Origin: Clostridia bacterium
GTDB lineage: Bacteria > Bacillota > Clostridia > Christensenellales > UBA1242
DNA length: 64,000 bases
Assembly: GCA_028709705.1 (NCBI GenBank)
Contig: JAQVWL010000001.1
Location: 96,855-160,854, forward strand
Direction: 5' to 3'
Positions 10,731 through 37,850 of this stretch are shown in pieces. How positions within the stretch are numbered: the stretch's first letter is position 1; every line of letters starts with the position of its first letter. The position numbers and the translations under genes are program-made. Under the pieces are notes generated by a model that had not been told where the DNA came from, made no database searches, and was given only the letters and a program-made list of their open reading frames with translations.

Positions 10731-10759
10731 TTGATAATTTGTTGTCAATAAAATATAAT
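10731..10759 (+). promoter_or_regulatory. sigma-A type promoter of the 15.8-kb gene
   Basis: TTGATA (10731-36), 17-nt spacer, TATAAT (10754-59). AGGAG RBS at 10771-75 and GTG start at 10784. Confidence 0.55.
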
Positions 10760-10783
10760 AAGAATATATAAGGAGTTGTTATA

Positions 10784-13700
10784 GTGCCTAATGTAAAACT
10801 AAATTTTTGGACAGTTTTTGTCTTGATTGCAAGTGCATTGATAATGACACTTGGTTTTGGTGTTTATAACAAAGCAATAACCGAAAATGTTTTCGCCGAA
10901 ACAACAACCTTAAACACTCAAACTGAAACAACTTCTTCGAGTACTTTGTCTAACAATACTTTAATAAAAAACGAAAATCCAGACCCTGTTGGTGTTGATA
11001 TAGAAGTTTATCTTAATATAAAATGTGGGGATGGAGGAAGTTATTTTAAGGTCCTATTTGTAAATGTTTATGGAATTGGCACAGAACTGATAAGCACTGG
11101 TGATTGGGCTCAGAGTGGCAGGAGAATTATAATTGACAGTGCTAGTATTTATTTATACTATCCAACTGCCCAAAATGGATATGTTTTTGATAAATTTTTT
11201 GTTGACGAAACAGGCAATAGTAGATATGTCTCCGCCAGCGAAGGCACAACAGTTAGTATAAGTCACTCAGCAAATATTGTTGCATTATTTAAACCTATAA
11301 CTTATAGCATAACCTACGACCTGGACGGCGGTTCGGCAAGTAACCCAACAACATATAATATCACTTCTTCTTTTTCATTAACTGCACCAACAAAAACTGG
11401 TTATACTTTTACAGGTTGGACAGGTTCAAATGGTTTAAGTCCACAGCAAAATGTTTCTATTTCAAGCACAACGGGCGACAAAAATTACACAGCAAATTGG
11501 CAACCAAACACATACAACATTACTTTCAACAAAGGTAGTGGAACAGGTGGAACTTCCTCATCAGTTTTCACTTATGATTCAGAATTGCCAGGTATTACCC
11601 CTCCATCGCAAAGAGGTTTTGATTTTAAGGGTTATTATACTGGTTCAAATGGTAGTGGAACATGTTATTACAACGAATATTGTACTTCCCAAATCACCAA
11701 ATTCACTAGTATCAACGTTTCAAATTTATACGCATATTGGGTGTCAAAATATTACACAGTAACACTAGACAAGCAAGGTGGTTCGGGCGGAACAAGTTCG
11801 GTTCAAGTGCAAAATGGAAGTTCAATGCCTGCAATAATTCCGCCAAGTTGGTTGGGGTATACTTTTGTGGGTTATTTTGCAAATACAAATACAAACAGTA
11901 CAAAATACTATAATTCAAATGGAACGGGAGCAACTACTTGGGATAAAACAGACAATGGCACAATCAATGCAGTTTGGACGCTTAATTCTTGCAGTTTATC
12001 AGTTAGTAAAGACAGCGGAATCACTGCATTCAACTATTATGCGGGCAGTTGGTCGGGCAATGTTGAAAGTGCAAGTCAAAGCAATATAAATGCTTTAAGC
12101 ATTTTAGAATTTAGAGTTTTAGACACTCAAATAAAAACAGGTTATGTGTGGAATTGTTGGCAAATATCAGGAACTGCGGGCGTTGACTATGATTTTTTTG
12201 GCGGAACAAACAGCACAAGTAAACAAATGAGTTTGAAAATTTACAAAAGCATTACCTTAATAGCAACAACCAAAATTGGCGTTTCAATCAGTTGCGTTAA
12301 TAACTCAACAGGGCTTTATACTGCAAATGGAGCGGGCGGTTCAGTCAAAATTGGAAGTGGCGAGTATGTTCCATCAATAACAGAAGGCTTTTTAAGTGGT
12401 GCTTCAACAACTTTAAGCACAAAAGGCAATTTTGCTTACACTTTTTTAGGTTTTTTCACTGCGTTTGATTCAAATGGCGGAATTGGCGAGTCTTTGACAT
12501 ATCAAACATATAATGCGGGAACCGAAAATCAATATTTTTCAGTTAATATTGCCAATATTTTGGCACCACAAAATTATTATGCAGTTTATGAAATTGAATG
12601 TTATGACCTTAATTTGTACGCATTTTCCACACATACAAATCAGTATGAAGAAATTCCCGACTTGTATGGTGGTATTGTAAAAATTGGCAACCAAACAGGC
12701 GGAGCAATTGATTATGGGCATGTGGGCTACACCCTTCAAATAAATATAAATGCAGAAGCAAATGATGGTTATAGATTTATTGGTTGGTATGACACTTATG
12801 AAGACTTGGTTGCCGATGTTGCAAATACCCAAATGATAAGTAACAATGCAAACTATTTCTTTTATATGGAAGATTATGACACTGATTTTTATGCAAAATT
12901 TATAAAAACACACACTGTTACTTTAGTTGCAACAACGGGCATAAGTTCTGTTTCTATTGAAAACAAATCAGGCACAACTGCTGAATATTATTACGGCGAA
13001 AGTATAGGCTTGTTAAGTTGTGTTGTTGATGAAATAAGATACACTTGGAAAAATTGGGAAGTTACAAGCGGAACAGAACCAAGCGGAACAACTATTCAAT
13101 TAAAAGGTCAAGAAATTTCTGGTCTTGTTATGAACGGTTATGATTTTGAATTTACCGCTTACACAACAACCAAAAAATTCGATTTGAATATTTACACAAT
13201 TTACAATGACTCTGGCACTCTTGTTAACAATTACACAAACGGAACAAATTATGGCGGTTTGGTTTCAACAACAAACTTGTCAAACGCAGTTCCTTATTAT
13301 AGTAATATAAAAGTAGAATATAATACTTTTGATGTAAATATGACCGCATTTGTCAATGAAGGTTACACTTTTATGGGCTGGTACAAAGATGTTGATTTTG
13401 TTTCAAATACTTATTCCACACCATACTTGCAAGGCACAACTTCGGGCAGTGCAATCAGCATAGAACCAATGGCAGTCGAAGGCTTGACATATTATGCTAT
13501 TTTCACAAAAAATTATAAAGTTTCTATCTATGGCGATAGCGGAATTTATAGTTTGACATTAACCAATGGCTCACAAGTGCAATACGATACTGACAAATAT
13601 TATTTGGAAGCAATTTATTATTATGGTCAACAAATAGAAAGCATTACCGCAACAATTGGTTTTGGTTTTGATTGGGAAGAATGGGTTTTGGGCGAGTCTA

Positions 13701-16700
13701 GCACTCTTTTGATAAATTTTAACCTTTTAGACAGAGTTCAAACAACAGAAATTTTTATGGGTGCAGGTGATTGCGTTTTGACTGCAAACACCTTTGCAGA
13801 CCAATATCCTTTGCATGTAAAGGCATATTACACTGACAATGGTGTTTATCATTATGGAAACAATGGTGGAAGCATTCAAATTGCAAGCCGTGAAATTGCT
13901 AGCGAAGATGGATTGGACCTTGATTTTCAACAAAAAATTGCAATAACAGCGTATCCCGAAGAGGGTTATTGCTTTGTTGGTTGGTTTAAAACACAAGTGT
14001 TAACTTATCCCAATGAAAATTTATATTCAGGCGATTTGTCAACAATGACTGAACCTATGCAATCAAATGAAAATGGTTTGACATATATTGCAGTTTTTAT
14101 AAAAACATATACTCTTACATTGACAAAATGGGAAGGTATTAACTCTGTTAGCACAACAAAAGAAAGTTATTATTATGGCGAAAGCGTTGGAATTAATGCT
14201 ATTGTTACAAGCGGTTATGAATGGGATAAATGGTTTTTGGTTAATGGACTAGCACCTATTGATTTTGATGAAAATTTGCAACTTCAAACAATAAAAATAC
14301 AAGGCAATGTTGTATTGGCTGCGTCAACAAAATCTCAAAAATATACATTAGATGTCACCGAAATGTATGAATTAACTAATGGTTCATATACAGTTGGCAC
14401 AACGGGCGGAACAGTAAACGATGGTGAAATGTCTTATTTGGCGGACATTGTTTCTATTATTACTGAAAACGAAGGATTTGAATTTGCTGAATATTTTCGT
14501 GATGAAGCACTAACAAATTCTTATGGTGGCGAAGTTATGCCACAAAACGATTTGACTTTGTACGCCAAATTTAAAAGAATTGAATATCAATTAACAACAA
14601 ACAATATTTATACTTCTGCTTTGGATAATCAAACCTTGATTGCAGGAACAACTGGCGGGCAAATTTATTCAAACAACACAATAAAATATGGTTGTCAAAC
14701 AGAGTTAACCGCAGTTGCAAGTGATGGTTTTGCTTTTAGAGGTTTTTATTTTGACAACCTTGGCACATCAGTTTACAAATTGGCAGAAGATTGCAATTTT
14801 GCAAACGGGAATTACACTTCATCAACCGAAGTTATGGGGACTGACGGTTTGATTTATTATGCTATTTTTGAAAGACAAACTTATACAATAGAAACAACAG
14901 GGCAGGGAACAACAATAACTTGCCCAAGCACTGCTTATTTTGGTAAATCAATTTCTTTTCAAGTAGAATATAATGATGCCTATGTTGTTTCAGCAATAAA
15001 TATATATAATGCAGACAATATTTATGAAACAGTAAATTATTCTAACAATCAGTTTGTTATGCCATATTTTGATATTGTTATAGAAACAGTTGCCACCGAA
15101 AAAAATTATCAAATTACTTTTAATCCCAATGGTGGCAGTTTTGATGGTTACACAGGTGTTGATGTTAGCGGAAACATTATAGGAAACACTGCATACTTAA
15201 CAAACAATTATTTGTATTATACAAACGCAGAAAAAACAAATTTTGTTTCAGGCGCACCACTTCCAACAAGAAATGGTTACAAACTTTTGGGCTTTAACAC
15301 TGATGCAAATGCTTTGGGAACTTATTATGTTTCTTACAACAATAGTTTTTCTTATGCAATTTGGAATTTAAGCGAAGATAAAATGCTTTATGCAATTTGG
15401 CAAATACAATCTCCTTTGCTAAATATTGAATATGTTAGCGGAACGCAAACACAATACAATGGTCAATACCAATCAGCATTAAGAGTGTCAGTTCAAAACA
15501 TTGTTCCAAACAAAAATTATATTTTTGAATGGTTTAACAGTGAAGGGCAACTAGTTTCTCAAACAACAACAAATCAAACCTCAAATGTATTGTCTTTAAG
15601 GAATGTAAATCAATCAAGTTTATATTACTGCAAAGTGTCAATAGAAAATGAAAGCGTTTTTACTGAATCTAGTTCATTGTCTTTTTCAATAACCACAATA
15701 GATTTGACAATTGATATTGGCACGCAAACTTACATAGGTTCTTACTTATATTTGCTTTCTAATGAAAATATATCAGGTTTGTTAGAAGGTCACAGATTTG
15801 TTAGCGGTTATTTAAGTTTTAACAGCGGAACCGAAGACATTATATATACTAATATATCAAATATTAACCACCAAGTTATCATTGAAGTTTTTGATGGCGG
15901 TGTTTGGACAAGTCAACAAGGTGGAGACTTGATTGACAATTATAACATTATTTTTGCTAGCACGGTTACAGTAAAACCTATCACTCAATCTATCAAACTC
16001 AATGTTGGCGGATATGAAAGAACGATAGACAGTAACACATATTTAGATGTTTTTTCTGAAAATGTTTTGTCAAACACATTGTTTGATTTTGGTTATGAAG
16101 GCGGTTTTGGGTCTTTTAACACAATTGAAGATAATGGAACAATTTCAAATTATTTTGAATTGGATAACATAAATCAAACTTTGACTATTACTTTTACTCA
16201 AATACCAAATTATTATAAAATTTTTGCATTATATGTAAACAATGTTAGCGTAAATTACACAGTTGACTTATACAACGAAAATATCATTTCCTTTGATTTA
16301 ACAGCAGGTATGTTGTCTTATAACTCTGAAAACGATTTTTGGGACGCTGTTGTCAAAGTTTATTTTACCAATGTTTGCTTGATAGAATACAATTACAATT
16401 TTGAAGTTTTAGAAGTTGAAAACGGCTTTGCAACTTTTGATAACAATTATCAAAAATCAATAATACAAAACGGGCAAAATTTTGTTGCTCCAACAACACC
16501 AACAAAAGTTGGTTTTTGGTTTGATGGCTGGTATTTTGACAACACAACTTTTGCAAATCAAGTTCCAATGGTATGGAACAAAACGGGTAGCACAACCATA
16601 TATGCAAAATGGACCCTTGCTGACCTTACCGCTCAAAATATTTTGGTTGAAGTTTATGACAACAATATTCTTACCGAATTGTTTAACAGGGCATATAACA

Positions 16701-19700
16701 CTAACTCTTTTGAACTAAAATTTGTTTCAACAAATCCAAGTATTACATATCAAGTTGTTTGGTACAAAAACCAAGATGGCTGGAAAGTTATTGAAACTTC
16801 AAAAATTTCAAACATAAAAAATGTGCTTGACGGTGGCGAATACTCTTTAAGTGTTAAAGCGATATACAATAGTCAAACAAAAAATCTTGCTTATGGCGTA
16901 AAAACTATTTTAATTAATATTTCTCCTGTTGAATTGACAATAGATTTTGACATTTCAAAGATTTATGATTCAACAACTCAACTAGGCAATTACAATATTG
17001 ATACCAATATCAATGGCGAACAATTCAATTTGGCTGGGCAATATAGCAGTCCAAATGTAAATTTGGTGGGCGGTGTTCCAAGTCAAGTTGCAATTTCAAA
17101 TTTTGCACTTGTCAGCATAAATGGTTCATTGCCAAGCAATTATAGTTTAACAAATACAAGTTTGTTTGGAACAATTATTCCTTTTGAATATAATATAGTA
17201 AAAAACGAAACAGCGGTTTATAACGGTGCAAGTTTTTCTAAAACTTTTGCACAAAACATAACGCTTCCAAAAGGTTATATTCAGTCAATAAATTACACAA
17301 TCAACACAAGCAGTGCAAATGTTGGAATTTACACTCCAAACGATTTAATAAATAATCTTTATCTTGATTTCAATGCAAGTGCAACAGGCTTGATTGCAGA
17401 CAACTATATTATCACACTTGGAAACGCAAGCAGTGTTGAAATAACAAAAACAAATTTACAAAATATATATTTTTCAGATCAAACAAAAATATATAATGCA
17501 GAATCACAAATGATAACCCTAAAAGATGCCTTTGGCGGAGATTATTCAACAGAAAACTTGCCAGATGGTTCAATAGGATTTGAATTTAAGCAAAATGAAA
17601 ATATTGTTACAGGCTTTACAGACTTTGGAACTTATTTGATAACGGTAATAATTTATGCTGACCAAAACCACAATGATTGGACAGACTCCGCTTCTTTGAC
17701 AATAAACAAAGCGATTATAAGTATTGAGTTTTTGTTCAATGGCGAAGCACTTGCACCAGCATATATTTACAATTCAGAAATTGATATGTATAGCAATTTG
17801 ACAATAAACGCTACCAATGAAAGCGGAACAAACTGCTTGCCAAATGATTTGACCAAAAAAGTTTTTCAAAACGCAATGGAAGTTTTTGAAGTAACAACCC
17901 CTAACGAATATGTTATAAAAGCGGAAAATTACAACACAAACTACCAAATTCAAGGCAATGACTCACAAAGTTTCAAAATTGTTGCAAATCAATATATTGT
18001 AAGTGAAGATATAACTTTTGAAAATGCAAGTTATGTTTTCAATGCAGAAAATCAAGCAAATTATTTTGTAAACCAAAACTTGATACCAAACTTGCCAGAA
18101 GGCATAGAAACTGCAACAACTATTGTTCAACTTTTTGATGGAACAAACTACAACATTGTTGCAACTGCACAAAATGTTGGTGTTTACAAAATAACGGTTG
18201 GCTTGCAATCACAAGACCCAAACATTTGGCAGTTCGACACTTCTTCAATTACTGCTTATTTGACTATCACTCCTTTTAATATAACCAACGAAAACACAAC
18301 AATTTCTGCAAACAAAATTTATAATGGTTTAACAAGTTTGCCAGCAAATGCAAAACTTAACATAACAAGCCTTTCTCTTCAAATTGCTTTTGGCGGTGTT
18401 TTTGCAAGTGCAAATGTTGGAACAGACATTGCAATAAACAACTTAACTATAAGTGATAACAACTTTACAATCAATCCAAGTTTTGTTGCAATGGCAACCA
18501 TAAGCAAAGCAAATTTGACAATAAACTTGTTTGAAAATGGAATTTCAGGAAATTACATACAAAAATCTTACGCAGATTTGGTGCAAATTCAAATAAACAA
18601 AAGCAATGCAAGCAAATATACAGTTGGTTTGCAAAATAACCAATATGCAGTGATTTTGTTTGAAGCGATTGGCATAGGCGGGGGACAATACCCTTTCAGT
18701 GATGAAAATCCAGAAACAAATCATTGTTTAATAAATGGTGCAATCTCTATTTATAATTCTAGCGATACCTTAATACCAAATGGCATAGAAAATTATAATT
18801 TACAAATAAATGGCGGAATTGAATTGCTAATGTTTATTTCTGTTCCCGAATTTTCAAACTTGACAAACTTGGTTTACACAGGGCAAAACTTACCAATTCA
18901 ACTAGTTTTGTCAAAATACAACGAACTAACAGAACAACTTGAAACGTTGACATACACATATGATTATGCAAACGAGTATTTTATTGACGAAAATTTACTT
19001 ATAGTAGATGATTTAGTGTTAACGATTTTAGGAGCGGGCAGTACATTGAAAAATGCGGGCGAATATACTTTGACATTAACAAGTCCAAATTTTTCTTATT
19101 TGTTTGTTTCAGAAGGCGAAAATCAATACACGACAACAGTTATTGTTGAAAAAGCACAAATCACTTTTAATTTAGGCGATAGGTTATTTGTTTATAAAAG
19201 TGTTTTTGCATATTCAAACGACACTGCTTATAGCGGAGTTAATGGCGAAACTTTTTATTGCAATTTTACTTACAATGGCAACACAACAACTTTGCCAGTT
19301 GGCGTTTATCCATTAACAAATTTAACCACAATTTATGAATTTAACACCAGCAAAACCAGCACAGGCGATTTTACAAACTATGATATAACAATAATAGGCA
19401 ATTTGTTTATTTCCGCCAGAACAATAACGATGACGGCAGGATATGATTTGCTTGGTTTAATTTATTCAGCCGAGGACCAAATTTCAAGCGTTAACGCCGT
19501 TATTCTAACATTTTATTACTTTGACAATCCTTACGCAGTTGATGCAAGCGACTACACAAAAAAATATTATTTGGGAGCAAATGAAGTCAGTCAAATCATA
19601 AATGCGGGAACATATACAGTAAAATTTACTTCAACAAATTACAACCTTACAGGCACTACAACTTTTGAATTTACAATTTCACAGAAAGAAATAACAGCAA

Positions 19701-26575: not shown

Positions 26576-26614
26576 AAAAAACTTTACAGGCAATAATGCT
26601 TGTAGGAGTTTTTT

Positions 26615-27144: not shown

Positions 27145-27152
27145 TTGTTTTT

Positions 27153-30100
27153 TTATTTTATTTTCATATTTCTTCTTAACAACACAAAAGTTACAACAAG
27201 TGCCGAAACTGCTAACACACTAAACACTATTATCACAACGGAAAAGGCATTTAATGGCTCTGCTTTCATTACTTTATAACTGTAAAGAACCTTGTCTGAA
27301 TCGGTAACTATTTGAATAAAATATGTTCCCGTTTTGGTAATGTTGTAAGTTTTGTAATAGTCAGTTGTGTTTGTTATGTTATCCAAATAACTTTGATTTA
27401 TTGTTATTATTTGGTCGCCAACCAAAATTTTACATTCGCCCAAATTGTTGAAAACATCATAGGCATTAAAACTAACGGAAATAGTGTTTGTTGTTGAAGA
27501 ACCTTCAACAGTTGAAATTGTTAGAGGAATTGTATTAAGATTTTTGATTTTAAAACCAAAAGTAAACATTTCGTTTTGAATATTGGAATTGGTCTTTATT
27601 GTTATTTGATAATTTCCTTCGCCTGTTATTTCATCATAAAGCGAAATTAAAATATTTTTTAAATATTTTACAGTCGCTGTTCCAACGGTGTAAGTGTTAA
27701 AGTGAAAATAATTGCTATAATCCATTTCAACATTATTTTTTAGCACAGAAACTATCTCATAATTGCTATATTGTGAATATTCAAAAGCCCATCTAAATTC
27801 ATTGTTGTTTATTATTGTAAATTTTGTTATTTGCCTTTTTACATTCATATTGTTGATTTTTGCATCAAAATATACTTCATAATAACCGCTACCAGAAATA
27901 ATATATTCTTTGTTTGCATTGGCAGTTATGGTAATAGGCAAGTTGTTTTTCAAAACAGTGATTTTGGGTTGACTGCCTTTTTCATATAGCGTATTCAAAT
28001 TTTGTGGCAAAGTAATGACGATTGAATTGTTATAAATTCCGTTTTCTATTGGCACATTACCGTTGATATAGAATGAAACGCCGTTGATATAAGTAAGTTT
28101 GTAATTACTTTGGATTATGTTGCTGTTTTTGTCTTGGAATATTTGAACGTTGCCCGCTTGGTCGCTAAAAGATATTGTGTAGTTTCCGCTATGAGTTAAA
28201 ACAACATAAGATTTTGTTGCATCAAATGCAAAAATTTTTGGAGTGTAAACAAATTCTTCATTGTCATCGTAAGTAATGTTTATATTAATAAAGTTTTCAG
28301 GAATGCCATAATAAGTATTAAAAACAACTTTAAGATTTGTAAAAGTTGAATTGTCTGATGTTATAACAATTTGTTTTGAAACATCAGAAAGTGTTGTCTG
28401 CCCAGTGGTTGAAATGCAATAAAAACCATTTTCAGGAAGTAATGTGCTTGTTGAAATATAAGTAACAGCAATATAGTTTGTATAAAATTTTATCATTTTG
28501 TTATTAGAATTGCTATTACTTATTTTATAAAACCTTGTTATTACACCATCAGGTGTGGTATAAGATTGTACAATTTCAGTCAATTCAATTTCTTGTTCTT
28601 CGTTTAATGTAATATTATAATTTTGAGTGTTTACAATATAATGACTTGAATAATATTTGTTGTCATAAGAAAATACTTTTCCCGTACTTTGTTTTGCTTG
28701 CCATTCATTTGTTGTTGAATTGAAAACCATTACATTATAAAAATTGGAACTTGATTCTGAAATTATAAAAGTTTTGACAGAGTATAAATATTGAACATCA
28801 TTGATAACAATATAAGTTTTTAAATAATATGTTCCTGCACTTTCAACACTTGTTCCAGAATTGATTACAATTTCTTCTTCATTGTTAAATTGAATTTTTG
28901 TAATTATAGGGAATACAAAACCATTTACAAAAGTCATTCTTGGTATGTTTATTGTCAATTGACCGGCAAAAATTGCACTGCTGTTTATCAAGTCGGATTT
29001 GTTTGTTCCGTTTTTGTCTATCAAAGAAATGTTAGGGGAAAGGTTGTTTATAAGCACGTAATCTGGGTTTGGTTGGTCTTGAATTGTGTTGCCGTTTATG
29101 TCAACTTTGGTTGGCAACAAGGTTATAATATATCTGGTAATACCGCCCGTAAAGTTTGTTATACCTTGTGTTGAACTTGGTGCAATCAAAACAATTTTGT
29201 TTATTGAATTTGATTTTGTACTTACCGAGCAAGAATAGTATGCGGTTGAAATGCCGGCATAAATTTTTGAACCGTTTGCATTTGTTATTCCTGTTGGTGT
29301 TATTGTATGCCATTCAAACACTGCCAAATCAGTATTAAAAATTAGCACTTGCAAATTGATATATACTTCATAATCAACATTGTTATAGTTGTATTCGACA
29401 TTGCCATAGCCAACAGACCAATTTTGATATCCCAATTCTTCATCACCAATCACAATTTTGTCAACAAATCCCACAATTTTTTCGTTGTCAGGAATTTTGA
29501 TTTCGCCACACGTGTGATAAAAAATGTTTGCGTTGCCAAAATTGTCGATATAAGTATATTTATAGGCAACTCTTGGACTTAAAATAGTAAATGTCCACCT
29601 GTTTGTTGTTGCTGTAAAAGTTACATAATTTGTTGAAGAGAAAGTGTTTGTTCCGTTATATATTTCAACATATCTATCCGTTTCCCAACTGGAAATGGTA
29701 AGCGATTTCAAAAATATTGACAAACCGCTTGCATAAGAATTTCCGTTGATATTTACGCCTTCGCCACTTGAAAGGGGAGTAATAGAAAGTACTTCATTGC
29801 TAACAAAAATATTGAAAGTATAATTTATTGTTTTTGTTGGGTCAACAATAATCAAAGTATGTTTTTGGTTGCTACTGCTCCAATTCATTATTTCTGTAAG
29901 TGTTACAATGTTAGGCAAAATTGAAGTGTTTGACCAATTTGTGATATCATAAAATGTATTGTTTTCAAGTTTAGGTGATTTTTGATACTTTATTCCATCA
30001 ACGCTAAACGTTAACCAAGGATAGTTATAAAGATTTATTTGATTAACATTGAAAAATGATTTTGCATAAATAGTTTGGACCTCTTGCAATTCGCTATATT

Positions 30101-33100
30101 TTATGTTTGTCAAGGTATTATATTGAGTGCTTTCTTTGTCAAAAGTCAAAACTTGCAAATCTGCATTGTTTTGCACAAAATATACAACATAAATTGAAAT
30201 ATTGCCTGCCAAATCTCTTTCAATAACTTCATAGTATTTGTTGACTGAAAGGGTGGAAGTAGAGATTGTAAGGTTGTGAGAAACTCTTGGGTCTTTTGCA
30301 AAGTTTATGCTTGTCATTTCATAAGTGTTTATGTTTTCTATCAATTTAAAATTGTAATAAAAACCATTTTTGTAATACACATCATCTGCATTTTGTGGAT
30401 TGAAATAAGAATTTAAAATCGAACTTGTCAAAGGCAACGCAAACGCATAATAAGCAAAAGCATCTGTGTTTTGTGTTTTTAAAACACTGTATTTTTGCGT
30501 GTTGTCAGCATATTGTCTGGAAAAAGAAGCAACATTTGTTCCTTCAATCAAAGTTTGGGCAATCATTTGCGACAAAACACTTTCAGGGGCAACTCTGTCA
30601 ATATAAAGTATTTTTGTTACACTGCTTGAAGTATTTTGAAGTCCTTCATATTGCATATAAAAATAAAGCACAGTGTTGGTTGGAAATCTGGAAATATCAA
30701 TTATTGCATAATGTTTTCTGCCATCAGTCACAATGTCGGTATTCAAGTTTAAATAATATTTGGTATTTATGTCTGTATAATAATAAATACCTTTTGCATT
30801 TCCATTTTCATTTGTCAAATCAATTTTTGCCATATATTCTTCAATTGGGTCTTCCCATTCAATTTTTATACTGTTTGCGTTAGTATAAGAAACATTGTTT
30901 GCATCGGTATTTAAAATGTCGCCATCTTGATTGTTTTCCAAAACTTCAACAAAGTCAAATGTTGGTTTTTTCTCAGAAATATAAAATATAAAACTAAAAG
31001 TCGAATAAGTGTTAGGGTAGGTAAGTCCATTTATTGCATTTTGTGAAATAGTAACATAATAATAACCTTCTTGTTCCAAACGTATAAGATTAGAAAAATA
31101 GTTTTGTGTTTCATTGGTGTTTTTTGTCATTGTAAGCACAGTTTTTGCACCGCCAATTGTGGAAGAATATTCTAAAACTACGCTCAAATCAAAACTTGGG
31201 TTATTTGTTGAAGTTAAATTAATATTTGAGGCTCCAAAATAAGACCATTCAAAAATTGATGTTACATTATTGCCGGAAAGCGAATATCTGTTTAAAAATG
31301 TTTGGTTGTTGATTGTTGTTGTGGTATAAAATTTTTGCAAAGCATCAAAAAGCGTAAACAACTTATTATTTTCGCTTATATCATAACCATATTTTGAGAT
31401 TGGAACATAAACAACAACGGGTAATTTATTTGTTTCCAAAATAAAAGCATCTGTGTTATAAGCCAATGCTAATTGGGTAAATTGTATGCTATTTTGACTC
31501 CCATCAAGCACATTGACATAAATTTCTTGCCCAATAATGCTAAAAATGTTGCCATTTATATTGGAAGGCAACGAAACAATATTTTCTCTGTCAACAATAA
31601 AACTGCTTTCTCTTGTCATAAAGTCAAAATTACTTACATAATCAGTACTTGAAGCGGTGTATGTTCTAACAACAACATATTTTCCATCAAAAGTTATATT
31701 TTGCCCTGTTGCAGAAGAAAATGCACTATTTAAATTAAAAGCAAAATAATTTGCAAAATCTCCACTTAAAGCAGTGGTCGCATTTATATTGTTTGTCAAA
31801 TCGTAAACAACAGTAGAAACTGCAACATTTGATAATTTGTAAATTCCGTTTTCTATTATAAAAGGAAAATAAAATACTTCAATTTTTTCTACTGCTATAT
31901 AGTCAGAAGGGTTGGGCAAAAAGATATAAGACAACATTTGAACATTGCCATTTACAGTTGCTCCCGTAGCATAATAATATTTTGTCCTTAAATCTGCTTT
32001 TTGATAAATTGGCATATTATTTTCGGCAGTTGTAAAAGAATCCGCAAAACCTGCTTGATTTAGATTTGCCGAATTGTAAGAAATGGCAGAAACATCAGTA
32101 GGATTGGTGGAACTATTGTTCAAAAGAATATTGGCCATTGAAGCGTCAGAAGTTGTTGTGATTTTGTAAGCAAGACTAGCATTTTTTACAAAATCAGATT
32201 GAGAAAGGCTAGATATCAAATTAAAATACGGGTTGCTTTCATCTATAAGATAAAAAACATAAGATATTTCATTTGCAAAAGTTTTGTCGCCTATTGTTTT
32301 TTCAAGATTGATAACATAGTTTTGTAAGTCGGTATTTTTTACAAAAGTGTTACCAATAAGCACATAACTTGTGGGCGATATTTCAGGTGCAAAATAATAT
32401 TTTCCTTCACTTGCAAGAATGTCATTATCCCCAGTTATTTCGTTTAATTTGCTAACAAAGACATCTTTGACCCAAATATCAGTTGTTGTTGCTAATTGAT
32501 TTACTGCTATGTTGGTGTTAATCAATTTAAATTTGCCCCACTGCAATTCAGTGTCTATTGAAACAACATTATAGTTTTGAACAGTCCTATATTCGCCATT
32601 TGAAATTTGACCCATTTTTATTTGTGTTTTATCAATGCAAAAAGTAATATATTGCCAATTTCCTGCCGAATCAGTTAATTTTATAATATAAAAACCTTGA
32701 CTGCTTAAAATACTACCTTCTTGCAAAAGACTGCTATTGCTTGTGTTGTTATATTTTATTGTCGCCAATTCGCTTCCGCCAACATCAAAATTCATAGCAT
32801 AATCAACCGCAATGCCAAAGTCATTTGCAAATTGACTTGCATTTGGAAGGCTGGCACTTGTTTGCACAAAAGGAATGTATTTATAATAAGCAGAACTCGT
32901 TGCACCACTTGCTTTTTCTGCCCATTGAATAGCAACAGATTTGTTAGTAAAAAACACAACAGGATTGCTTGTATTTTTTATGTATTGATTGCTAATAGAA
33001 GTCGAAGTGGTCACATTATAAACTCCAACATTTTGAAAAGAAGTGTTGTCAATAGTAAAGTACGAAGTTTGACTTTTGTTGTTTACATAATTTATAACAA

Positions 33101-34889
33101 CTTTATAGTTTTTGTTATAGGAAACAGTTTGAGATTGAGAAGAAGTGTTGGCTGTAATAGTTGTGCTTGTACTATAAACACTGCTAGTGTACTCTTTGCT
33201 GAATATACTTACGCTAACAGGTGAATTGAAAACACTTTGTCCCGGCAATGTTATTTTTACGCTATTTCTTGTATAAGAGTTTGAACTGATAGTTGTTTCG
33301 GTTGTTGTTTCGCCAACTGTTTCAAGTTTTGCCATAGAAACAGACATTTTGTCATTTGTAATATTAAAATAAAAATATTGAACAAAATAAACATTAGAAG
33401 CGTTATTCCCGTTTGAGTTTAAGTTATTTTGAAAGGTGTAAACAGTTTTCAAAAGATAAGTTCCGGGGTCGGTAAAGGAAGTGTTTAAATAAGTGTTTTT
33501 TATGTAAGTGTCATTAAGTTTTGCCCAATCGTTTGTTTCTTCATCAAGTTTGTAATAATATGAGTTTGCTTGGTTGATGGTCACATTACTATTTGCAAAA
33601 ACTGCGGGTTGGTTTGTGGAAGCAGGAGTTAAACCGCTTATTGCATTAAAAATGGCAGTGTCATCAACAAGTGCAGACAAAGAAACGTTTTTCAAACTTT
33701 CATAATTTAGAGTGTAACTTACATCAGCAGAATTTACTCCGCCAGCAAGTCCGTTTTCAATCAACTTAAATTCTTTTTTTGCTTTTGTAATGCTATCAGA
33801 ATAGTTTAATTGATAACCATAAACATACAACATATCTGCTTTTTTGTTTACATTTGTGATTTCGGGGCTAATCAAAGAGGTATAACTGTTGCCATTGTTG
33901 TCGTAAACAAATTGATAAGTCAATCTATAATCGCCAATATCTTGAAAATAAATAGTAATTTTTTGAGTTTCTTCATCAAAAACAGCATCAACAAAATTTT
34001 GAGTGGAATTTGTTCCCAAAGTTATCAACTTGTTGGTCGTAAATTTACTAATTGTGCAAGTTTCACTTGTTCCTTGAACAGACTTGGTCACGCTAACAAT
34101 AAATTTGCCCGCATCAAATGTCAAACTTGGCAAATAATTGTATGTTGTTGAAGGTTCAATTATGTTCGCATAATTAAAAAAGTAATAATTTTTGTAAGTT
34201 GCTCCAATAGGACTTGCACTTCTAACATTATCAAAATCTAAATTTTGGGTTGTTGCATTATCAGCGGCAAAATAATCGGTTGTGTTAAAAATATAAAAAG
34301 TTGCGCTATAAGATTTTGTTGAGTTTACTTCAAAATCAACACCAGTGTTTTCTTTGTAGTTTTCAAAAGTTATTTCGTATTTGCCAGTAGGGAATAGGGT
34401 TGATTCTTCTAAATCTATTTCAATTGTAAGATATCCAAAACTAGCGTCATAACCGGTTGGGTTTTCGGGATTGTAATTAGGTGCATAAAAATAGGTTATT
34501 CTTTTTATCAAATCGGCATCAAAATAAGGTTGAAGATTTGCAATGTCTAGTCCGTTAATATTAAGTTTAAAACTTCCTATTTCCCAAGATACTGCATATT
34601 CGCCAATTTCTTCCTGACTGCCATAAACTTCATAAGTGTTTTCAATAGCGTTTCCAACGGGTTTGCCAAAATTTATAACAAGTTTTTGTCCATCATCTAA
34701 AAAAACACTTTGACCGCTAGTATAATTTGTGTTGTTTACTTTTGCAGAAAAATAAGAAGGGGCAGTTTGTTCTGCCAACACAAAATTTTTTGGGGCAAAA
34801 TTTGTTGTCAATAAACACAAGCCCATAACAAGCAAACCAAAACTAGTTGCCAAACTCAAAAATATATTTTTATTTTTTTTTGAATACAT
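27153..34889 (-). CDS. giant (2578 aa) tail-anchored surface protein, Ig-like beta-sandwich repeats, no recognisable catalytic domain
   Basis: Start set at ATG 34889 (GAGAGGGAAA RBS). Signal peptide (IFLSLATSFGLLVMGLCLL...VLAEQ). N/T/S/Y-rich sequence with many GxYx(I/L)x(V/I) strand motifs (GDYRLTYQF, GFYIIKLTDSAGN, GNYTISFSDQAGN, GTYFIQIVTD). C-terminal TM helix (FSVVIIVFSVLAVSALVVTFVLL) plus an RRNMKIK tail. No LPXTG. Confidence 0.9.
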   Translation of the reverse strand: MYSKKNKNIFLSLATSFGLLVMGLCLLTTNFAPKNFVLAEQTAPSYFSAKVNNTNYTSGQSVFLDDGQKLVINFGKPVGNAIENTYEVYGSQEEIGEYAVSWEIGSFKLNINGLDIANLQPYFDADLIKRITYFYAPNYNPENPTGYDASFGYLTIEIDLEESTLFPTGKYEITFENYKENTGVDFEVNSTKSYSATFYIFNTTDYFAADNATTQNLDFDNVRSASPIGATYKNYYFFNYANIIEPSTTYNYLPSLTFDAGKFIVSVTKSVQGTSETCTISKFTTNKLITLGTNSTQNFVDAVFDEETQKITIYFQDIGDYRLTYQFVYDNNGNSYTSLISPEITNVNKKADMLYVYGYQLNYSDSITKAKKEFKLIENGLAGGVNSADVSYTLNYESLKNVSLSALVDDTAIFNAISGLTPASTNQPAVFANSNVTINQANSYYYKLDEETNDWAKLNDTYIKNTYLNTSFTDPGTYLLKTVYTFQNNLNSNGNNASNVYFVQYFYFNITNDKMSVSMAKLETVGETTTETTISSNSYTRNSVKITLPGQSVFNSPVSVSIFSKEYTSSVYSTSTTITANTSSQSQTVSYNKNYKVVINYVNNKSQTSYFTIDNTSFQNVGVYNVTTSTSISNQYIKNTSNPVVFFTNKSVAIQWAEKASGATSSAYYKYIPFVQTSASLPNASQFANDFGIAVDYAMNFDVGGSELATIKYNNTSNSSLLQEGSILSSQGFYIIKLTDSAGNWQYITFCIDKTQIKMGQISNGEYRTVQNYNVVSIDTELQWGKFKLINTNIAVNQLATTTDIWVKDVFVSKLNEITGDNDILASEGKYYFAPEISPTSYVLIGNTFVKNTDLQNYVINLEKTIGDKTFANEISYVFYLIDESNPYFNLISSLSQSDFVKNASLAYKITTTSDASMANILLNNSSTNPTDVSAISYNSANLNQAGFADSFTTAENNMPIYQKADLRTKYYYATGATVNGNVQMLSYIFLPNPSDYIAVEKIEVFYFPFIIENGIYKLSNVAVSTVVYDLTNNINATTALSGDFANYFAFNLNSAFSSATGQNITFDGKYVVVRTYTASSTDYVSNFDFMTRESSFIVDRENIVSLPSNINGNIFSIIGQEIYVNVLDGSQNSIQFTQLALAYNTDAFILETNKLPVVVYVPISKYGYDISENNKLFTLFDALQKFYTTTTINNQTFLNRYSLSGNNVTSIFEWSYFGASNINLTSTNNPSFDLSVVLEYSSTIGGAKTVLTMTKNTNETQNYFSNLIRLEQEGYYYVTISQNAINGLTYPNTYSTFSFIFYISEKKPTFDFVEVLENNQDGDILNTDANNVSYTNANSIKIEWEDPIEEYMAKIDLTNENGNAKGIYYYTDINTKYYLNLNTDIVTDGRKHYAIIDISRFPTNTVLYFYMQYEGLQNTSSSVTKILYIDRVAPESVLSQMIAQTLIEGTNVASFSRQYADNTQKYSVLKTQNTDAFAYYAFALPLTSSILNSYFNPQNADDVYYKNGFYYNFKLIENINTYEMTSINFAKDPRVSHNLTISTSTLSVNKYYEVIERDLAGNISIYVVYFVQNNADLQVLTFDKESTQYNTLTNIKYSELQEVQTIYAKSFFNVNQINLYNYPWLTFSVDGIKYQKSPKLENNTFYDITNWSNTSILPNIVTLTEIMNWSSSNQKHTLIIVDPTKTINYTFNIFVSNEVLSITPLSSGEGVNINGNSYASGLSIFLKSLTISSWETDRYVEIYNGTNTFSSTNYVTFTATTNRWTFTILSPRVAYKYTYIDNFGNANIFYHTCGEIKIPDNEKIVGFVDKIVIGDEELGYQNWSVGYGNVEYNYNNVDYEVYINLQVLIFNTDLAVFEWHTITPTGITNANGSKIYAGISTAYYSCSVSTKSNSINKIVLIAPSSTQGITNFTGGITRYIITLLPTKVDINGNTIQDQPNPDYVLINNLSPNISLIDKNGTNKSDLINSSAIFAGQLTINIPRMTFVNGFVFPIITKIQFNNEEEIVINSGTSVESAGTYYLKTYIVINDVQYLYSVKTFIISESSSNFYNVMVFNSTTNEWQAKQSTGKVFSYDNKYYSSHYIVNTQNYNITLNEEQEIELTEIVQSYTTPDGVITRFYKISNSNSNNKMIKFYTNYIAVTYISTSTLLPENGFYCISTTGQTTLSDVSKQIVITSDNSTFTNLKVVFNTYYGIPENFININITYDDNEEFVYTPKIFAFDATKSYVVLTHSGNYTISFSDQAGNVQIFQDKNSNIIQSNYKLTYINGVSFYINGNVPIENGIYNNSIVITLPQNLNTLYEKGSQPKITVLKNNLPITITANANKEYIISGSGYYEVYFDAKINNMNVKRQITKFTIINNNEFRWAFEYSQYSNYEIVSVLKNNVEMDYSNYFHFNTYTVGTATVKYLKNILISLYDEITGEGNYQITIKTNSNIQNEMFTFGFKIKNLNTIPLTISTVEGSSTTNTISVSFNAYDVFNNLGECKILVGDQIITINQSYLDNITNTTDYYKTYNITKTGTYFIQIVTDSDKVLYSYKVMKAEPLNAFSVVIIVFSVLAVSALVVTFVLLRRNMKIK

Positions 34890-34916
34890 TTTCCCTCTCT
34901 CACAACGACAAAAATT

Positions 34917-35074: not shown

Positions 35075-35145
35075 GGTCAAGAGGAGGAGAGTCAACTGAC
35101 TCTCCGCTCCCGCTCCCGTGTCAGTAACTAGCGTCCCCGTTGACC
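35075..35145 (-). repeat. half copy (left-arm type, minus orientation) of the palindromic repeat family, copy B
   Basis: CGTGTCAGTAACTAGCGTCCCCGTTGACC (35117-35145) is an R unit on the plus strand, equivalent to an F unit on the minus strand. The adjacent diverged R'-like part contains the self-complementary GGAGAGTCAACTGACTCTCC (35086-35105). No partner arm is present. Confidence 0.85.
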
Positions 35146-35164
35146 TTGTTTGATATTTCACAAC

Positions 35165-35192
35165 AAAAAATTCCGCTTTTGCGGAATTTTTT
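35165..35192. terminator. bidirectional terminator directly after the coupling-protein gene
   Basis: AAAAAATTCCGC-tttt-GCGGAATTTTTT. It ends 1 nt before the T4CP stop codon. Confidence 0.85.
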
Positions 35193-35193
35193 G

Positions 35194-37164
35194 TTAAAAC
35201 CCAAACGAATCGAAATCCGGTTTGTTTCGTTTTAGCATTTTTGCGTTTCTTTGTTTGATGTCATAAAATACTTTTTCTTCTTCAAAAGGTTGGCATTTTA
35301 CATATTCATCTTCTGCAACTGTTTTGTCAAATTCAGGTGTTTTGTAGTATGGTGTAAACGCAGTTTTGATAGGATTTGTTTGAAATATTTTTACAATAGC
35401 AGTGCCATAAGGTAGTTGTCCCAACTCGTAAGGTCCAATAAGCGGTCTTGTGACCATTTGTGCGCTTGTTGTGGTTGATGTTCCTGTTTCTTTTTTGTCT
35501 GACTTGCTTGTTGATGTGTTTTTAAGTTCAAGGGAAATATCGCCACACATTTTTGAATATTCTTCTTTTGTTTTTTGGTCTTCTGTTCCCAAATAAATCT
35601 GAATGTTGCAGTTACCCCTAATAGTGTCAGCAGTTTCTTTGCCGTATTTGTTATCAAGTTGACTATATGATTGCACCACAAGTTCAAAAAAGATTTTTCT
35701 TGAACGAGCAACTGTGATAATACTATCCATTTTTTCAATTTTGGGCAAGTTTGCAAACTCATCAAGCAAAAAATAAACAGTTTTTGGCAATTCAAGATTG
35801 GGAGAAACGCTTGCCTTGTCTATCAGTTTTTTATAAATTTGAGAAATACACATAGTCGCCAAACAGTGTCTTGATTCTTTTTCATCTGGCACTTTGATAA
35901 ACAAAACAGTAGGGCGGTCAACAAAGTTATCAAAAATCATATCAGAATGACTTGTTGCATAACAAATACCACTATCTTGAAAAATTGAAATTCTGGAATA
36001 CAAAATACCCATATAACTTTTTGTTGTGCCGGGAGCATTGTTGATAGCGGTTGAAGTCAAAGAAGTAACTTTGCTAAACTTATCTCTACCCGAGCAATAA
36101 TCACGAAGTGTTCCATAAGGATTGTCAGGGTCTGGGTCTCTTGAAGTTGCAATTTTTGCAAGGTTATAGAAGTTATATTTTTCTTTTGTTAAGCCAAGTT
36201 CAGGGATAGCACTGTCTTCAAGCATTGCAAGCATCAAACCATACAAAAGGTCTTGCGCGCCCCTTTCCCAACTTGGGTCATTTTTGTTTTCAATAGGCAC
36301 AATGTTTATGGCAATTTCTCTTAACTCATTTTCTGCAATATCAATCATTTCTTGCTTTTTTGCGCGCAAGTCGTTGGTAAGTTGGGTTTTGTCAGAATAC
36401 GCCATTCCGTTATATTCATACCAAACATTACCAAAATCGTTTGAAGTAAGTTTTAGTTTGTATTGCGATGGTTTTCCACCGTTATGAATTTTTACTTCAT
36501 TTTCCAAATTTTTTGCTCTGTGGTAAGTGTCGTAAGCATTTGCCATTGGGTTCCAACGTGTTGAAGCAAATGGATTTCTTAAATCAAGAACCATCAAGTT
36601 GTAACCAAGATTTTTTAATTGTTTGCTATGTTTGTTATAAAGTTCGCCCTTTGGGTCAGTAACAACAAGGCAAGGCTTTTCAGCGGTGTTGGACAAAATT
36701 CTTATTGCAGGGTCAATAATAAGTGTTGTTTTACCAGAACCTGTTGTTCCAATAACAAGAGTATGTATTGGCTTGAACATATTTATATTCAATTTTCCAT
36801 TTTTTACCAAGTTTCTGATAACTATACCGCTTTTTTTGACCATAGGCAAAGTTTTGTATGTGTTATACATAAAATTTGGATTTGTTTCTAAATCTTTTTC
36901 AGTTACCCATTTTGCATCGTAATATTGTGAAATCTTGTCGCCCGCTTTTGTTGTTCCAACACCTGTTGAGGTGCTTGATTTTGTTTTTGTGTTGCTTGTA
37001 ATGTAAAGCAATGCAATGGCAAGACCTGCAAAACCACCAAAAAGCGCATAAGTGCTTGAAAATAACGAAGCAATGTCAGCAGTTCCTTCTAGATAAGCAG
37101 AAGCACCAACACCAATCAAATAAAATATTAAGGTTGCTATCATAATTTTTGAAAATGATTTCAT
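35194..37164 (-). CDS. type IV secretion coupling protein (VirD4/TraG/TraD family ATPase)
   Basis: 656 aa. Two N-terminal TM helices, YYDAKW motif, Walker A HTLVIGTTGSGKTT, VVTDPKGELY, LDLRNP..STRWNP, Walker B YFLLDEFANLP, SRKIFFELVVQSYSQL and GNCNIQIYLG. GGAGG RBS. Confidence 0.85.
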   Translation of the reverse strand: MKSFSKIMIATLIFYLIGVGASAYLEGTADIASLFSSTYALFGGFAGLAIALLYITSNTKTKSSTSTGVGTTKAGDKISQYYDAKWVTEKDLETNPNFMYNTYKTLPMVKKSGIVIRNLVKNGKLNINMFKPIHTLVIGTTGSGKTTLIIDPAIRILSNTAEKPCLVVTDPKGELYNKHSKQLKNLGYNLMVLDLRNPFASTRWNPMANAYDTYHRAKNLENEVKIHNGGKPSQYKLKLTSNDFGNVWYEYNGMAYSDKTQLTNDLRAKKQEMIDIAENELREIAINIVPIENKNDPSWERGAQDLLYGLMLAMLEDSAIPELGLTKEKYNFYNLAKIATSRDPDPDNPYGTLRDYCSGRDKFSKVTSLTSTAINNAPGTTKSYMGILYSRISIFQDSGICYATSHSDMIFDNFVDRPTVLFIKVPDEKESRHCLATMCISQIYKKLIDKASVSPNLELPKTVYFLLDEFANLPKIEKMDSIITVARSRKIFFELVVQSYSQLDNKYGKETADTIRGNCNIQIYLGTEDQKTKEEYSKMCGDISLELKNTSTSKSDKKETGTSTTTSAQMVTRPLIGPYELGQLPYGTAIVKIFQTNPIKTAFTPYYKTPEFDKTVAEDEYVKCQPFEEEKVFYDIKQRNAKMLKRNKPDFDSFGF

Positions 37165-37352
37165 TAAAAATTATCCTCCAATGTCTATATTTTTTTTAAC
37201 ACAATAAACTTTTAAAGTCAAACAAAATGGCGTTTAATTATAATTAATAATATTTTATATTTTATTAATTCATTTACAAACTTTGATAAAAAAGTTTATT
37301 TTTTTGTGCAAAAAAATTTTTTTAAAAAATTAAAAAATATGTCAAAATTTGT

Positions 37353-37381
37353 TTGGAAATTGAAAAATAATGTGGTATTAT
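37353..37381 (+). promoter_or_regulatory. extended -10 promoter of the small membrane protein gene
   Basis: TTGGAA (37353-58), 17-nt spacer, TGgTATTAT (-10 at 37376-81). Confidence 0.5.
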
Positions 37382-37457
37382 AATTTTGTAAATATATTTG
37401 CGTTGCATAATGACAGATATTTTGCAAAGAATAATAAAAAACGGAGGGTTTTTTGAT

Positions 37458-37784
37458 ATGTACGATTTAGCAATAAGGTTTATGAGCGGGTTGATGTTTG
37501 TTGACACGGGGATTGAAGAAGGTGGAACTTGGGGTTGGGTTAACACTGTTGTTGCAGCAATCCAAGAGATACTTTGGCCTATTTTGATTGTTGTTGGCGC
37601 TGCAGGAATGCTTTATGCTGTTATAATCGGTGTTAATATGGCAAGAGCAGACTCAACAGAAAAAAAAGAAGAAGCCAAAAAAAGATTGATTAATGTTATT
37701 GTTGGTTTGGCAATTATTATTGCACTTATTCTATTCTTCCAATTGTTTATATCTGCAATTTTACCAGCTTTCTTTGGACAATAG
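37458..37784 (+). CDS. 108-aa two-TM membrane protein with VirB2/TrbC pilin-like topology (tentative)
   Basis: GGAGGG lies 9 nt before ATG 37458. Hydrophobic helices ILWPILIVVGAAGMLYAVIIGV and LINVIVGLAIIIALILFFQLFISAIL are separated by the charged loop ARADSTEKKEEAKKR. Divergent from the T4CP gene. The function call rests on size, topology and context only. Confidence 0.35.
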   Translation: MYDLAIRFMSGLMFVDTGIEEGGTWGWVNTVVAAIQEILWPILIVVGAAGMLYAVIIGVNMARADSTEKKEEAKKRLINVIVGLAIIIALILFFQLFISAILPAFFGQ

Positions 37785-37801
37785 AAAATTTTAAATAAAC
37801 C

Positions 37802-37850
37802 AAAAAACTTTTTGTTGCAAATTTTGCAACAAAGGTTTTTTTTATTTTTT
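37802..37850 (+). terminator. rho-independent terminator
   Basis: TTTGTTGC (37811-18) pairs with GCAACAAA (37826-33), then a long T-run. Confidence 0.75.

Follow-up and report, generated by a model that had tools for sequence, protein, structure and literature searches.

Why does a Clostridia bacterium keep genes for a VirD4-type coupling ATPase and a pilin-like protein between its sporulation and housekeeping genes? The locus that raises this question lies in a 64,000-nucleotide stretch of contig JAQVWL010000001.1 (assembly GCA_028709705.1, positions 96,855 to 160,854), which was analysed at its full length and is called the window below. A first-pass annotation had picked out a 27-kb block of five genes: two giant genes for surface proteins (giantA and giantB), a gene for an AmiS/UreI-family channel protein, the gene for the type IV coupling protein (T4CP) and that for the pilin-like protein. 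A map of the open reading frames (ORFs) and family scans agree with that annotation on all five genes, including their coordinates, families and layout. The five do not form one set, however: just T4CP, the pilin-like gene and giantB stay together in relatives.

Comparison across genomes indicates that these three genes are a vertically inherited, strongly conserved chromosomal module of uncultured Christensenellales-like gut Clostridia. The annotation had weighed two readings of the block, a stripped remnant of an integrative conjugative element (ICE) and a contact apparatus. Comparative genomics favours the second for T4CP, the pilin-like protein and giantB, and does not extend it to giantA and the channel protein. 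With slightly more than even confidence, we propose that the module is a relaxase-less contact apparatus of the core genome, derived from a conjugative type IV secretion system (T4SS) of the Gram-positive or Mollicute type (MPF-FATA-like) whose mobile functions have been lost.

The coupling ATPase, the pilin-like protein and giantB

The core parts of the module and their control signals are as follows, with positions counted along the window.

27153..34889, minus strand: giantB, tail-anchored surface protein, 2,578 aa (ORF to 34928); core part of the module
35162..35195, minus strand: terminator-like hairpin, AACAAAAAATTCCGC/GCGGAATTTTTTGTT, directly past the T4CP stop codon; T4CP's own terminator
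35194..37164, minus strand: T4CP, VirD4-type, 656 aa; core part of the module
37345-37316, minus strand: candidate T4CP promoter, from the promoter scan
37318..37457, plus strand: promoter and leader of the pilin-like gene, inside the divergent T4CP/pilin control region 37165-37457
37458..37784, plus strand: pilin-like hairpin protein with two transmembrane (TM) segments, 108 aa (PF18895 T4SS_pilin, Mbov_0395 family); core part of the module

The pilin-like gene adjoins T4CP in every related locus that has enough flanking sequence. T4CP also has a giantB orthologue next to it in 11 related loci, of which 10 are distinct because L022 and L023 are near-duplicates (related loci carry L numbers). 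The genes are arranged in these orders:

Order 1: pilin-like gene divergent from T4CP, which giantB follows in the same direction; the window, L002, L013, L015 and L022/23, and in part L004 and L014
Order 2: giantB divergent from T4CP, which the pilin-like gene follows in the same direction; L001
Order 3: giantB and the pilin-like gene side by side, both divergent from T4CP, which two genes for TM proteins follow; L005, L006, L007 and L024, and in part L003 and L019
Order 4: a surface protein gene, two pilin-like genes and T4CP, all in one direction; L016/17

The chromosomal contexts number at least four: nth(-obg); a glnS-like gene; rpmG-secE-nusG-rplKA; and an ABC/FtsX gene to mscL-rsfS-ksgA. 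In L024, the module stands directly beside rpmG-secE-nusG-rplKA and the S10 operon. Linkage kept in spite of rearrangement is what one classically expects of a functional unit. Of the checks that the first-pass annotation had named for its block, co-occurrence in related genomes holds for T4CP, the pilin-like gene and giantB, which stay adjacent although their order changes; it fails for giantA, which recurs in L015 only, and for the channel gene, which recurs nowhere. We also considered a role as a sporulation channel, given the neighbouring sipL, spoIIR, sleB and ypeB and the giantB paralogues beside spoIIE, and rejected it because the module lies in non-sporulation contexts elsewhere.

T4CP is recognised by the family profiles PF02534 (177 bits), PF12696 (119 bits) and PF10412 (102 bits), and by NF045973, "VirD4-like, CD1115 family" (297.6 bits, cutoff 250). 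It matches TrwB in the PDB (E=1.6e-11) and, weakly, CedB (E=1.4e-4). The protein has a TrwB-type nucleotide-binding domain with Walker motifs, and two hydrophobic segments (residues 3-26 and 34-57) that form a two-TM N-terminal anchor. Both Walker motifs (A, GTTGSGKT; B, LLDEFANL) are invariant across 119 relatives and the FDxFxF tail at the C-terminus is conserved there, in line with the earlier argument that intact ATPase motifs speak against simple decay. The acidic-aromatic F-D-x-F-x-F of this clade stands at the extreme C-terminus (35197-35214 in the window) and recalls the partner-docking tails of other coupling proteins. Relatives at 64-75% identity are found in metagenome-assembled genomes (MAGs) labelled Christensenella, Catabacter or Clostridia, and metagenomes hold thousands of close relatives; a scan of metagenome contigs with T4CP led to three loci only. 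Besides the MAG of the window (locus tags PHQ62), assemblies with the module include GCA_028708805.1, GCA_902495165.1 and Christensenella sp. UBA5489; L003, L019 and L024 suggest that a five-gene version may also exist in cultured Christensenella or Catabacter strains. The clade (at least 60% identity) is one cluster at 50% identity, with about ten full-length sister clusters at 42-51%.

The pilin-like ORF opens at 37398 (128 aa), and the product preceded by a GGAGG ribosome-binding site starts at 37458. PF18895 scores 36.6 bits against a cutoff of 26.6 on the 128-aa ORF (37398-37784), which contains the 108-aa product; NF045849 scores a borderline 40.2 on the product itself, against a cutoff of 40. 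The two hydrophobic segments (27-62 and 73-108) are joined by a nearly invariant loop, MARADSTEKxEEAKKRL. A search of PDB sequences with the pilin profile found no solved homologue.

Conservation extends to the control region of the pilin-like gene. The promoter has an A-tract, a -35-like box (TGTTTGGA) and an extended -10 element, and its leader of ~65 nt holds two TTGCA motifs ~21 nt apart and the GGAGG. This arrangement is conserved over nine or ten loci from all subclades, in deeply diverged genomes (alignments A3 and A4, the latter of L001, L002, L005, L007, L013, L015, L020, L022 and L024). In L001, where the pilin-like gene has moved downstream of T4CP, the promoter and leader are conserved with it. 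The TTGCA pair could be an operator or part of a leader hairpin; RNAalifold gave no convincing consensus for the leader, in which the individual hairpins are AT-rich and out of register.

For giantB, the likely start, and probably the real one, is the ATG at 34889, which lies behind a GAGAGAGGG ribosome-binding site and yields the product that NCBI lists as PHQ62_00585; the gene has an AT-rich upstream region of its own. Searches of Pfam and NCBIfam found nothing for this protein. It has an N-terminal signal, a C-terminal TM helix and a basic tail. Directly before the anchor helix stands an invariant K-x-EPLNA; the tail, LLRKRMKIK, hardly varies (27153-27290). The K-x-EPLNA motif, which is not LPXTG, could be a processing or sorting signal.

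The giantB orthologues are full-length and collinear (2,492-2,680 aa, 27-59% pairwise identity), with even conservation over the whole length. Identity between the window protein and its relatives is 38-46%, in keeping with an exposed protein. AlphaFold models were built for residues 40-1230 and 1370-2558 (mean predicted local distance difference test scores of 64 and 72) and consist almost wholly of beta-strand. Foldseek against the PDB describes them as tandem Ig/FN3-like arrays, with matches to the GhpA grappling hook, the EA1 S-layer protein, an RTX adhesin and the Ig-like domains of PrgB (8beg, E=1.8e-7, a generic Ig-array match), and with no enzymatic, NTF2/VirB8-like or hydrolase fold. 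Distant relatives of giantB (16-24% coverage) are not linked to T4CP and were therefore treated as paralogues. In two genomes, the gene that directly follows spoIIE encodes a partial paralogue (2,753 and 3,194 aa), and no T4CP accompanies it (L008/L009, 7601-18262; L010/L011).

Conservation and the mobile-element question

Could the block be what is left of an ICE, stripped down to its adhesins and coupling ATPase and now decaying or recently domesticated? The family names invite the idea, as the CD1115 T4CP, Mbov_0395 pilin-like and Mbov_0396 TM families are all named after ICE genes; there is no VirB4 or relaxase, and interspersed repeats lie nearby. Sequence conservation speaks against it. 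Between the window and its relatives, T4CP is 71-75% identical and the pilin-like protein 73-77% (63% in L022/23). The corresponding values for flanking genes are 66-71% for Obg, 60-65% for Nth, 66% for SleB, 59-60% for YpeB, 61-63% for SpoIIR and 51% for SipL. T4CP and the pilin-like protein are therefore under strong purifying selection, being conserved as much as or more than Obg and Nth in the same genome pairs. Furthermore, several genomes have the module in this very slot, between sipL...ypeB and nth.

The remaining evidence points the same way. The window has none of the ICE hallmarks sought (integrase, att repeat, tRNA gene, GC anomaly). A tRNA gene scan and an Rfam scan of the window were both empty, which agrees with the annotation's remark that no tRNA flanks the block, and the GC fraction of the block, 0.29-0.37, is the same as that of the flanks. 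The catalytic motifs are intact across the 119 relatives. The best plasmid-borne T4CPs (from Spiroplasma citri, Bacillus thuringiensis and Exiguobacterium) are just 27-31.5% identical to the window protein. Together with the conservation of T4CP and the pilin-like protein at or above the level of Obg and Nth, this distance means that the block is no recent ICE remnant. As a recent event, the first of the two earlier readings is thus unsupported and, given the conservation, the shared slot and the uniform base composition, we consider it ruled out; the reading in general is highly unlikely. An ancient origin from a conjugative T4SS of the Firmicutes/Mollicutes type is likely. The annotation [quoted passage not shown] in these genomes should accordingly not be read as the sign of a mobile element.

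The repeats deserve separate mention. They form a family of GC-rich palindromes of ~70 nt with the core CAACGGGGACGNTAGNNACTGACACG, resembling repetitive extragenic palindromes or miniature inverted-repeat transposable elements (REP/MITE-like), and lie in AT-rich intergenic spacers. The core occurs six times in the window, where no copy is expected by chance.

10236..10640, no strand: palindromic repeat cluster in the 700-bp spacer left of giantA
35086..35150, no strand: palindromic repeat copy in the spacer between T4CP and giantB
48157-48351: three repeat copies between tsf and a U32 peptidase gene

Copies do lie at the left border of the block and in the gap between giantB and the ATPase gene, as had been reported. 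Those at 48157-48351, outside the block and among housekeeping genes, identify a genome-wide family, so the repeats are no border marker and we rejected them as island borders. Two ORFs of 108 and 132 aa at 10211-10704 overlap the repeats and are probably spurious.

Variable neighbours and flanking genes

The other features of the block and its surroundings are listed here.

6842-7510: SleB, cell-wall hydrolase gene, sporulation context
Left flank of the block: sipL, spoIIR, sleB, ypeB and a Rho_N-like gene, from family scans
10731-10759: promoter-like site TTGATA-17-TATAAT, before giantA
10784..26575, plus strand: giantA, tail-anchored surface protein, 5,263 aa, with InlB B-repeat (Flg_new) and YDG domains; variable neighbour
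26583-26606: terminator-like hairpin between giantA and AmiS
26615..27115, plus strand: AmiS/UreI-family channel protein, 166 aa; variable neighbour, seen only in the window
27112..27156, no strand: AT-rich hairpin with a weak stem between the convergent AmiS and giantB genes; candidate bidirectional terminator
37789..37855, no strand: bidirectional terminator-like hairpin past the pilin-like gene, before nth
Right flank of the block: nth, obg and pta, from family scans
51391-51951: lytic transglycosylase with an SLT domain, 186 aa, between lgt and lysS, 14 kb from the module

giantA resembles giantB in having an N-terminal signal-like segment, one C-terminal TM helix and a basic tail. Its domains (PF09479, 96.7 and 69.5 bits; PF18998, Flg_new_2; YDG, PF18657) are all missing from giantB. 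The last 80 residues of both giants are free of LPXTG-type motifs, in line with the annotation's statement that there is no sortase signal. The channel protein matches PF02293 over residues 1-153 of its 166 (67.3 bits, cutoff 25) and has 5-6 hydrophobic segments; a search of PDB sequences gave no meaningful match. It was rightly called an orphan, as the window has no amidase or urease gene. The annotation had joined giantA and the channel gene in one transcription unit, which the hairpin at 26583-26606 divides. The bidirectional terminator that it had placed where these genes converge on giantB corresponds to the AT-rich hairpin at 27112-27156, a candidate with a weak stem that the terminator scan did not flag.

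Neither gene follows the module. A tblastn search found no AmiS homologue in any related locus. A giantA homologue is present at the site in L015 only, as a convergent Flg_new giant of 7,242 aa (33% identity over 2,898 aa); L001, L002, L013, L014 and L022 have none. L013 and L014 share the slot (sipL-spoIIR-sleB-ypeB-RhoN-like to nth) and have there a guanylate cyclase gene and two small genes instead of giantA and AmiS; the same position holds a GDSL lipase gene in L002 and a methylase gene in L022. Since the contents of the slot differ so much between relatives, giantA and AmiS are, as far as genome comparison can tell, lineage-variable cargo that occupies a changeable site at the giantB 3' end, and not parts of the machine.

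Does this variability extend to giantB itself? T4CP and the pilin-like protein could be a functional pair, with the giant gene adjoining them by inherited synteny or in a "surface-protein hotspot" and with no mechanistic coupling. The changing genes beside giantB fit this idea, as do the partial giantB paralogues that occur without T4CP. So does L016/17, a very prevalent lineage with contigs up to 823 kb, in which the neighbouring surface protein (832 aa, tail-anchored, Flg_new_2) is unrelated to giantB. We nevertheless think it unlikely. Full-length giantB stays with T4CP and the pilin-like gene over three gene orders, at least three contexts and T4CP divergence down to 64% identity, and the operon includes a gene for a tail-anchored surface protein even in the divergent L016 lineage. 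In L016, T4CP is also followed by a gene for a 266-aa protein without a family match (12004-12804), which has no counterpart in the window.

Outside the block, the window consists of sporulation and housekeeping genes, among them iscS/nifU, sipL, spoIIR, sleB, ypeB, nth, obg and pta, and further rpsB, tsf, lgt, lysS, nusA, infB, rbfA, truB and efp. A few short or unassigned ORFs have no family match, and none of them is a VirB4, relaxase or integrase gene. Family scans of all ORFs in the 64-kb window found none of these three either, in agreement with the annotation. Its further claim that the window has no cell-wall hydrolase does not hold, given SleB and the SLT protein, although both stand in sporulation or housekeeping contexts. 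The SLT protein has the sole VirB1-like fold in the window and is probably a housekeeping enzyme. Beside ypeB, a 381-aa protein (8929-10074) matches Rho_N weakly and has no Rho ATPase domain; it is 55-56% identical to proteins at the same position in L013 and L014.

A possible contact apparatus and its relation to known systems

A coupling protein would be expected to have partners. Its cognate relaxase and VirB4 channel were found neither in the window nor within ~10 kb of T4CP in related loci. The earlier description of the coupling ATPase as an orphan is nevertheless overstated, since Mbov_0396-family proteins adjoin T4CP in sister lineages and one is encoded elsewhere in the same genome. 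In L003, L005, L006, L007, L019 and L024, two genes downstream of T4CP encode paralogous polytopic proteins of 708-794 aa. These match NF045848 (MMCAP2_0566-family conjugal transfer protein) with 114-126 bits against a cutoff of 90, and NF045889 (Mbov_0396-family ICE transmembrane protein) with 74-89 against 70. The window has no gene of either family. The genome as a whole does have such a T4SS-type part: another contig encodes PHQ62_02815 (P0178), an 800-aa protein with scores of 121.1 (cutoff 90) and 79.6 (cutoff 70) for the same two profiles.

With six or more hydrophobic segments, a ~180-aa loop and a ~300-aa tail rich in A and K, PHQ62_02815 resembles "extended" VirB6 proteins in topology (PMC12857230). 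Judging from topology and family names, we infer that the Mbov_0396-family proteins are equivalent to VirB6. P0178 has no plasmid match. Its orthologue in L018 stands alone among tsaD/tsaE, a Mur ligase gene, an SPFH protein gene and ddl, and in the L022/L018 species T4CP and the Mbov_0396-like gene are each on contigs of ~65 kb, more than 10 kb apart. Two side observations concern this family. An SPFH/Band_7_1 gene lies by or near the Mbov_0396-like gene in two lineages (L018, 10179-11492; L007, 18784-20133) and could encode a further partner. The pilin-like proteins of L016 (8810-9877) and of the window weakly match positions ~55-125 of the Mbov_0396/MMCAP2_0566 profiles (E ~3e-4 to 9e-3), which suggests a relationship between the small pilin-like protein and the hairpin at the N-terminus of the large polytopic one.

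How might such parts work together? Our proposed apparatus would have four kinds of part: a VirD4-type hexameric membrane ATPase; one or two two-TM hairpin proteins resembling VirB2/VirB3; a type-I surface protein of ~2,600 aa with Ig-like domains and a C-terminal helix anchor; and one or two polytopic proteins of the Mbov_0396/MMCAP2_0566 family with VirB6-like topology. The polytopic and hairpin proteins would interact to build a membrane translocon or a surface extension. T4CP would energise the translocon and select its substrate, which could be DNA or protein, and would possibly dock partners through its acidic-aromatic C-terminal tail. The Ig-like fibre of giantB would establish contact with other cells or with surfaces, the part that PrgB-type adhesins play in enterococcal T4SSs, and another tail-anchored protein would take its place in L016.

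Several points weigh against this proposal. The surface protein of L016/17 is unrelated to giantB, so the adhesin partner is interchangeable and its functional link is weaker than that between T4CP and the pilin-like protein. The fold matches of giantB are to generic Ig arrays. The pilin-like identity comes from hidden Markov models, and its NCBIfam score sits at the cutoff. All the evidence is from sequences of MAGs and metagenome contigs. Finally, VirB4 is absent from the window and, at every locus examined, from the ~10 kb around the cluster or around the solitary Mbov_0396-like gene, and neither a VirB1-like hydrolase nor VirB3- or VirB8-like parts are linked to the module. VirB4 is, to our knowledge, considered the one ATPase universal to T4SSs. 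Hence, the apparatus may be incomplete or may work differently from a T4SS.

One explanation for the missing genes is that this is a canonical monoderm T4SS that has been split, with VirB4 (and VirB3, VirB8 and a hydrolase) elsewhere on the chromosome. The system might then be relaxase-less or even conjugative. This is a refinement of the contact apparatus and no alternative to it; we regard it as possible, without favouring it. PHQ62_02815 already lies on another contig, and the >10-kb separation in the L022/L018 species shows the same tendency. Of the 5,713 t4cp genes of Patescibacteria, only 148 have virB4 nearby (PMC12102498), and the closest plasmid relative, that of S. citri, has a DUF87/VirB4-like gene three genes upstream of T4CP. 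Against this, no VirB4-like gene was found in ~20 loci with ~350 kb of flanks, five-gene clusters included, although this is absence of evidence only.

A bolder and more doubtful version is a VirB4-independent machine of the core genome, with the VirD4-type ATPase as sole motor, a translocon or filament of VirB2-like and extended VirB6-like proteins, and an Ig-like fibre. If true, it would serve contact with other cells, for example syntrophic partners. It would also be a new architectural class of T4SS-derived apparatus, and the first VirB2-like system of a classical Gram-positive phylum outside mobile elements. Should these genomes prove to have no VirB4 at all, the standing of VirB4 as the universal T4SS motor would need qualification.

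Alternatively, the ATPase and its membrane partners could be a pathway for export or anchoring of giantB, or a device for DNA uptake or release that has no contact role, in the manner of Ced or of gonococcal DNA release. T4CPs are substrate receptors and translocases, and giantB has its conserved pre-anchor motif and basic tail. The archaeal Ced system (CedA, CedA1/A2 and CedB), which is chromosomal and non-conjugative and imports DNA, manages with VirB2-like and VirB6-like proteins and a single ATPase, and CedB is the weak match noted above. However, the Ced ATPase is of the VirB4/HerA type and that of the module is VirD4-like; a giant adhesin is missing from Ced, the module has no linked gene for DNA processing, and the classical signal peptide of giantB means that Sec export suffices. 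We judge this option quite unlikely.

The closest described systems are the T4SSs of Patescibacteria/Saccharimonadia, which are likewise monoderm, MPF-FATA-derived, chromosomal, lineage-wide and without relaxase (PMC12102498; PMC12857230). They too have PF18895/VirB2-like pilin genes, sometimes in arrays, VirB6-like and VirD4-like parts, and a T4CP that is often unlinked. In contrast, they are defined by VirB4 (with TrsD and VirB3), and the module described here has no VirB4 near any part. Patescibacteria are epibionts, whereas the present host belongs to a spore-forming Bacillota lineage with genomes of normal size. The module is also linked to a conserved Ig-like surface protein of ~2,600 aa, whereas no adhesins were detected in the patescibacterial clusters (PMC12102498).

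By sequence family, the nearest systems are the ICEs of Mycoplasma, which share the Mbov_0395/MMCAP2_0565 and Mbov_0396/MMCAP2_0566 families and a VirD4-type T4CP. Their minimal apparatus comprises CDS5 (VirD4), CDS17 (VirB4), CDS16 (VirB6-like, with 8 TM segments) and CDS13/15 (small VirB3-like TM proteins) (PMC12857230); Mbov_0395 and Mbov_0396 would correspond to CDS15 and CDS16. Linked VirB1-like or VirB8-like parts are lacking both there and here. The Mycoplasma genes lie on mobile ICEs with a DDE recombinase and VirB4, whereas the module is core-chromosomal and has neither a recombinase nor a nearby VirB4, and its polytopic proteins (700-800 aa, of which ~180 aa form a loop and ~300 aa a tail) are more than twice as long. 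T4CPs of the CD1115 family on plasmids and ICEs (S. citri pSci, 68-kb B. thuringiensis plasmids) share the NCBIfam family and domain set. They are only 27-31.5% identical to the window T4CP and stand beside a VirB4-like (DUF87) gene, whereas the clade described here is at least 60% identical internally. PrgB of enterococcal pCF10-like plasmids is, like giantB, a large surface protein with an Ig stalk and a C-terminal anchor, encoded with T4SS genes. It differs in that the two have no sequence homology, and giantB has no LPXTG, is anchored by a TM helix and is five times as long as the matched Ig fragment of PrgB. A search of the accessible literature found no description of a T4CP/pilin/giantB module.

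What does the module mean for these bacteria? According to a 2025 review, Gram-positive T4SSs lack VirB2-type subunits, with Patescibacteria as the sole exception (PMC12857230). That exception is prized because the system is chromosomal, relaxase-less and essential. On the sequence evidence, the module would be a second, independent VirB2-like case, and one in ordinary Bacillota. T4CP and the pilin-like protein do not evolve faster than the essential GTPase Obg, if anything more slowly, and a version of the module lies by ribosomal-protein operons; these properties imply an important role in the cell, other than conjugating a mobile element. Among gut bacteria, Christensenellales are prevalent and host-heritable, and aggregation with methanogens is known from their cultured members. 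With its giant adhesin, a conserved contact apparatus would be a concrete candidate for cell interactions of this kind.

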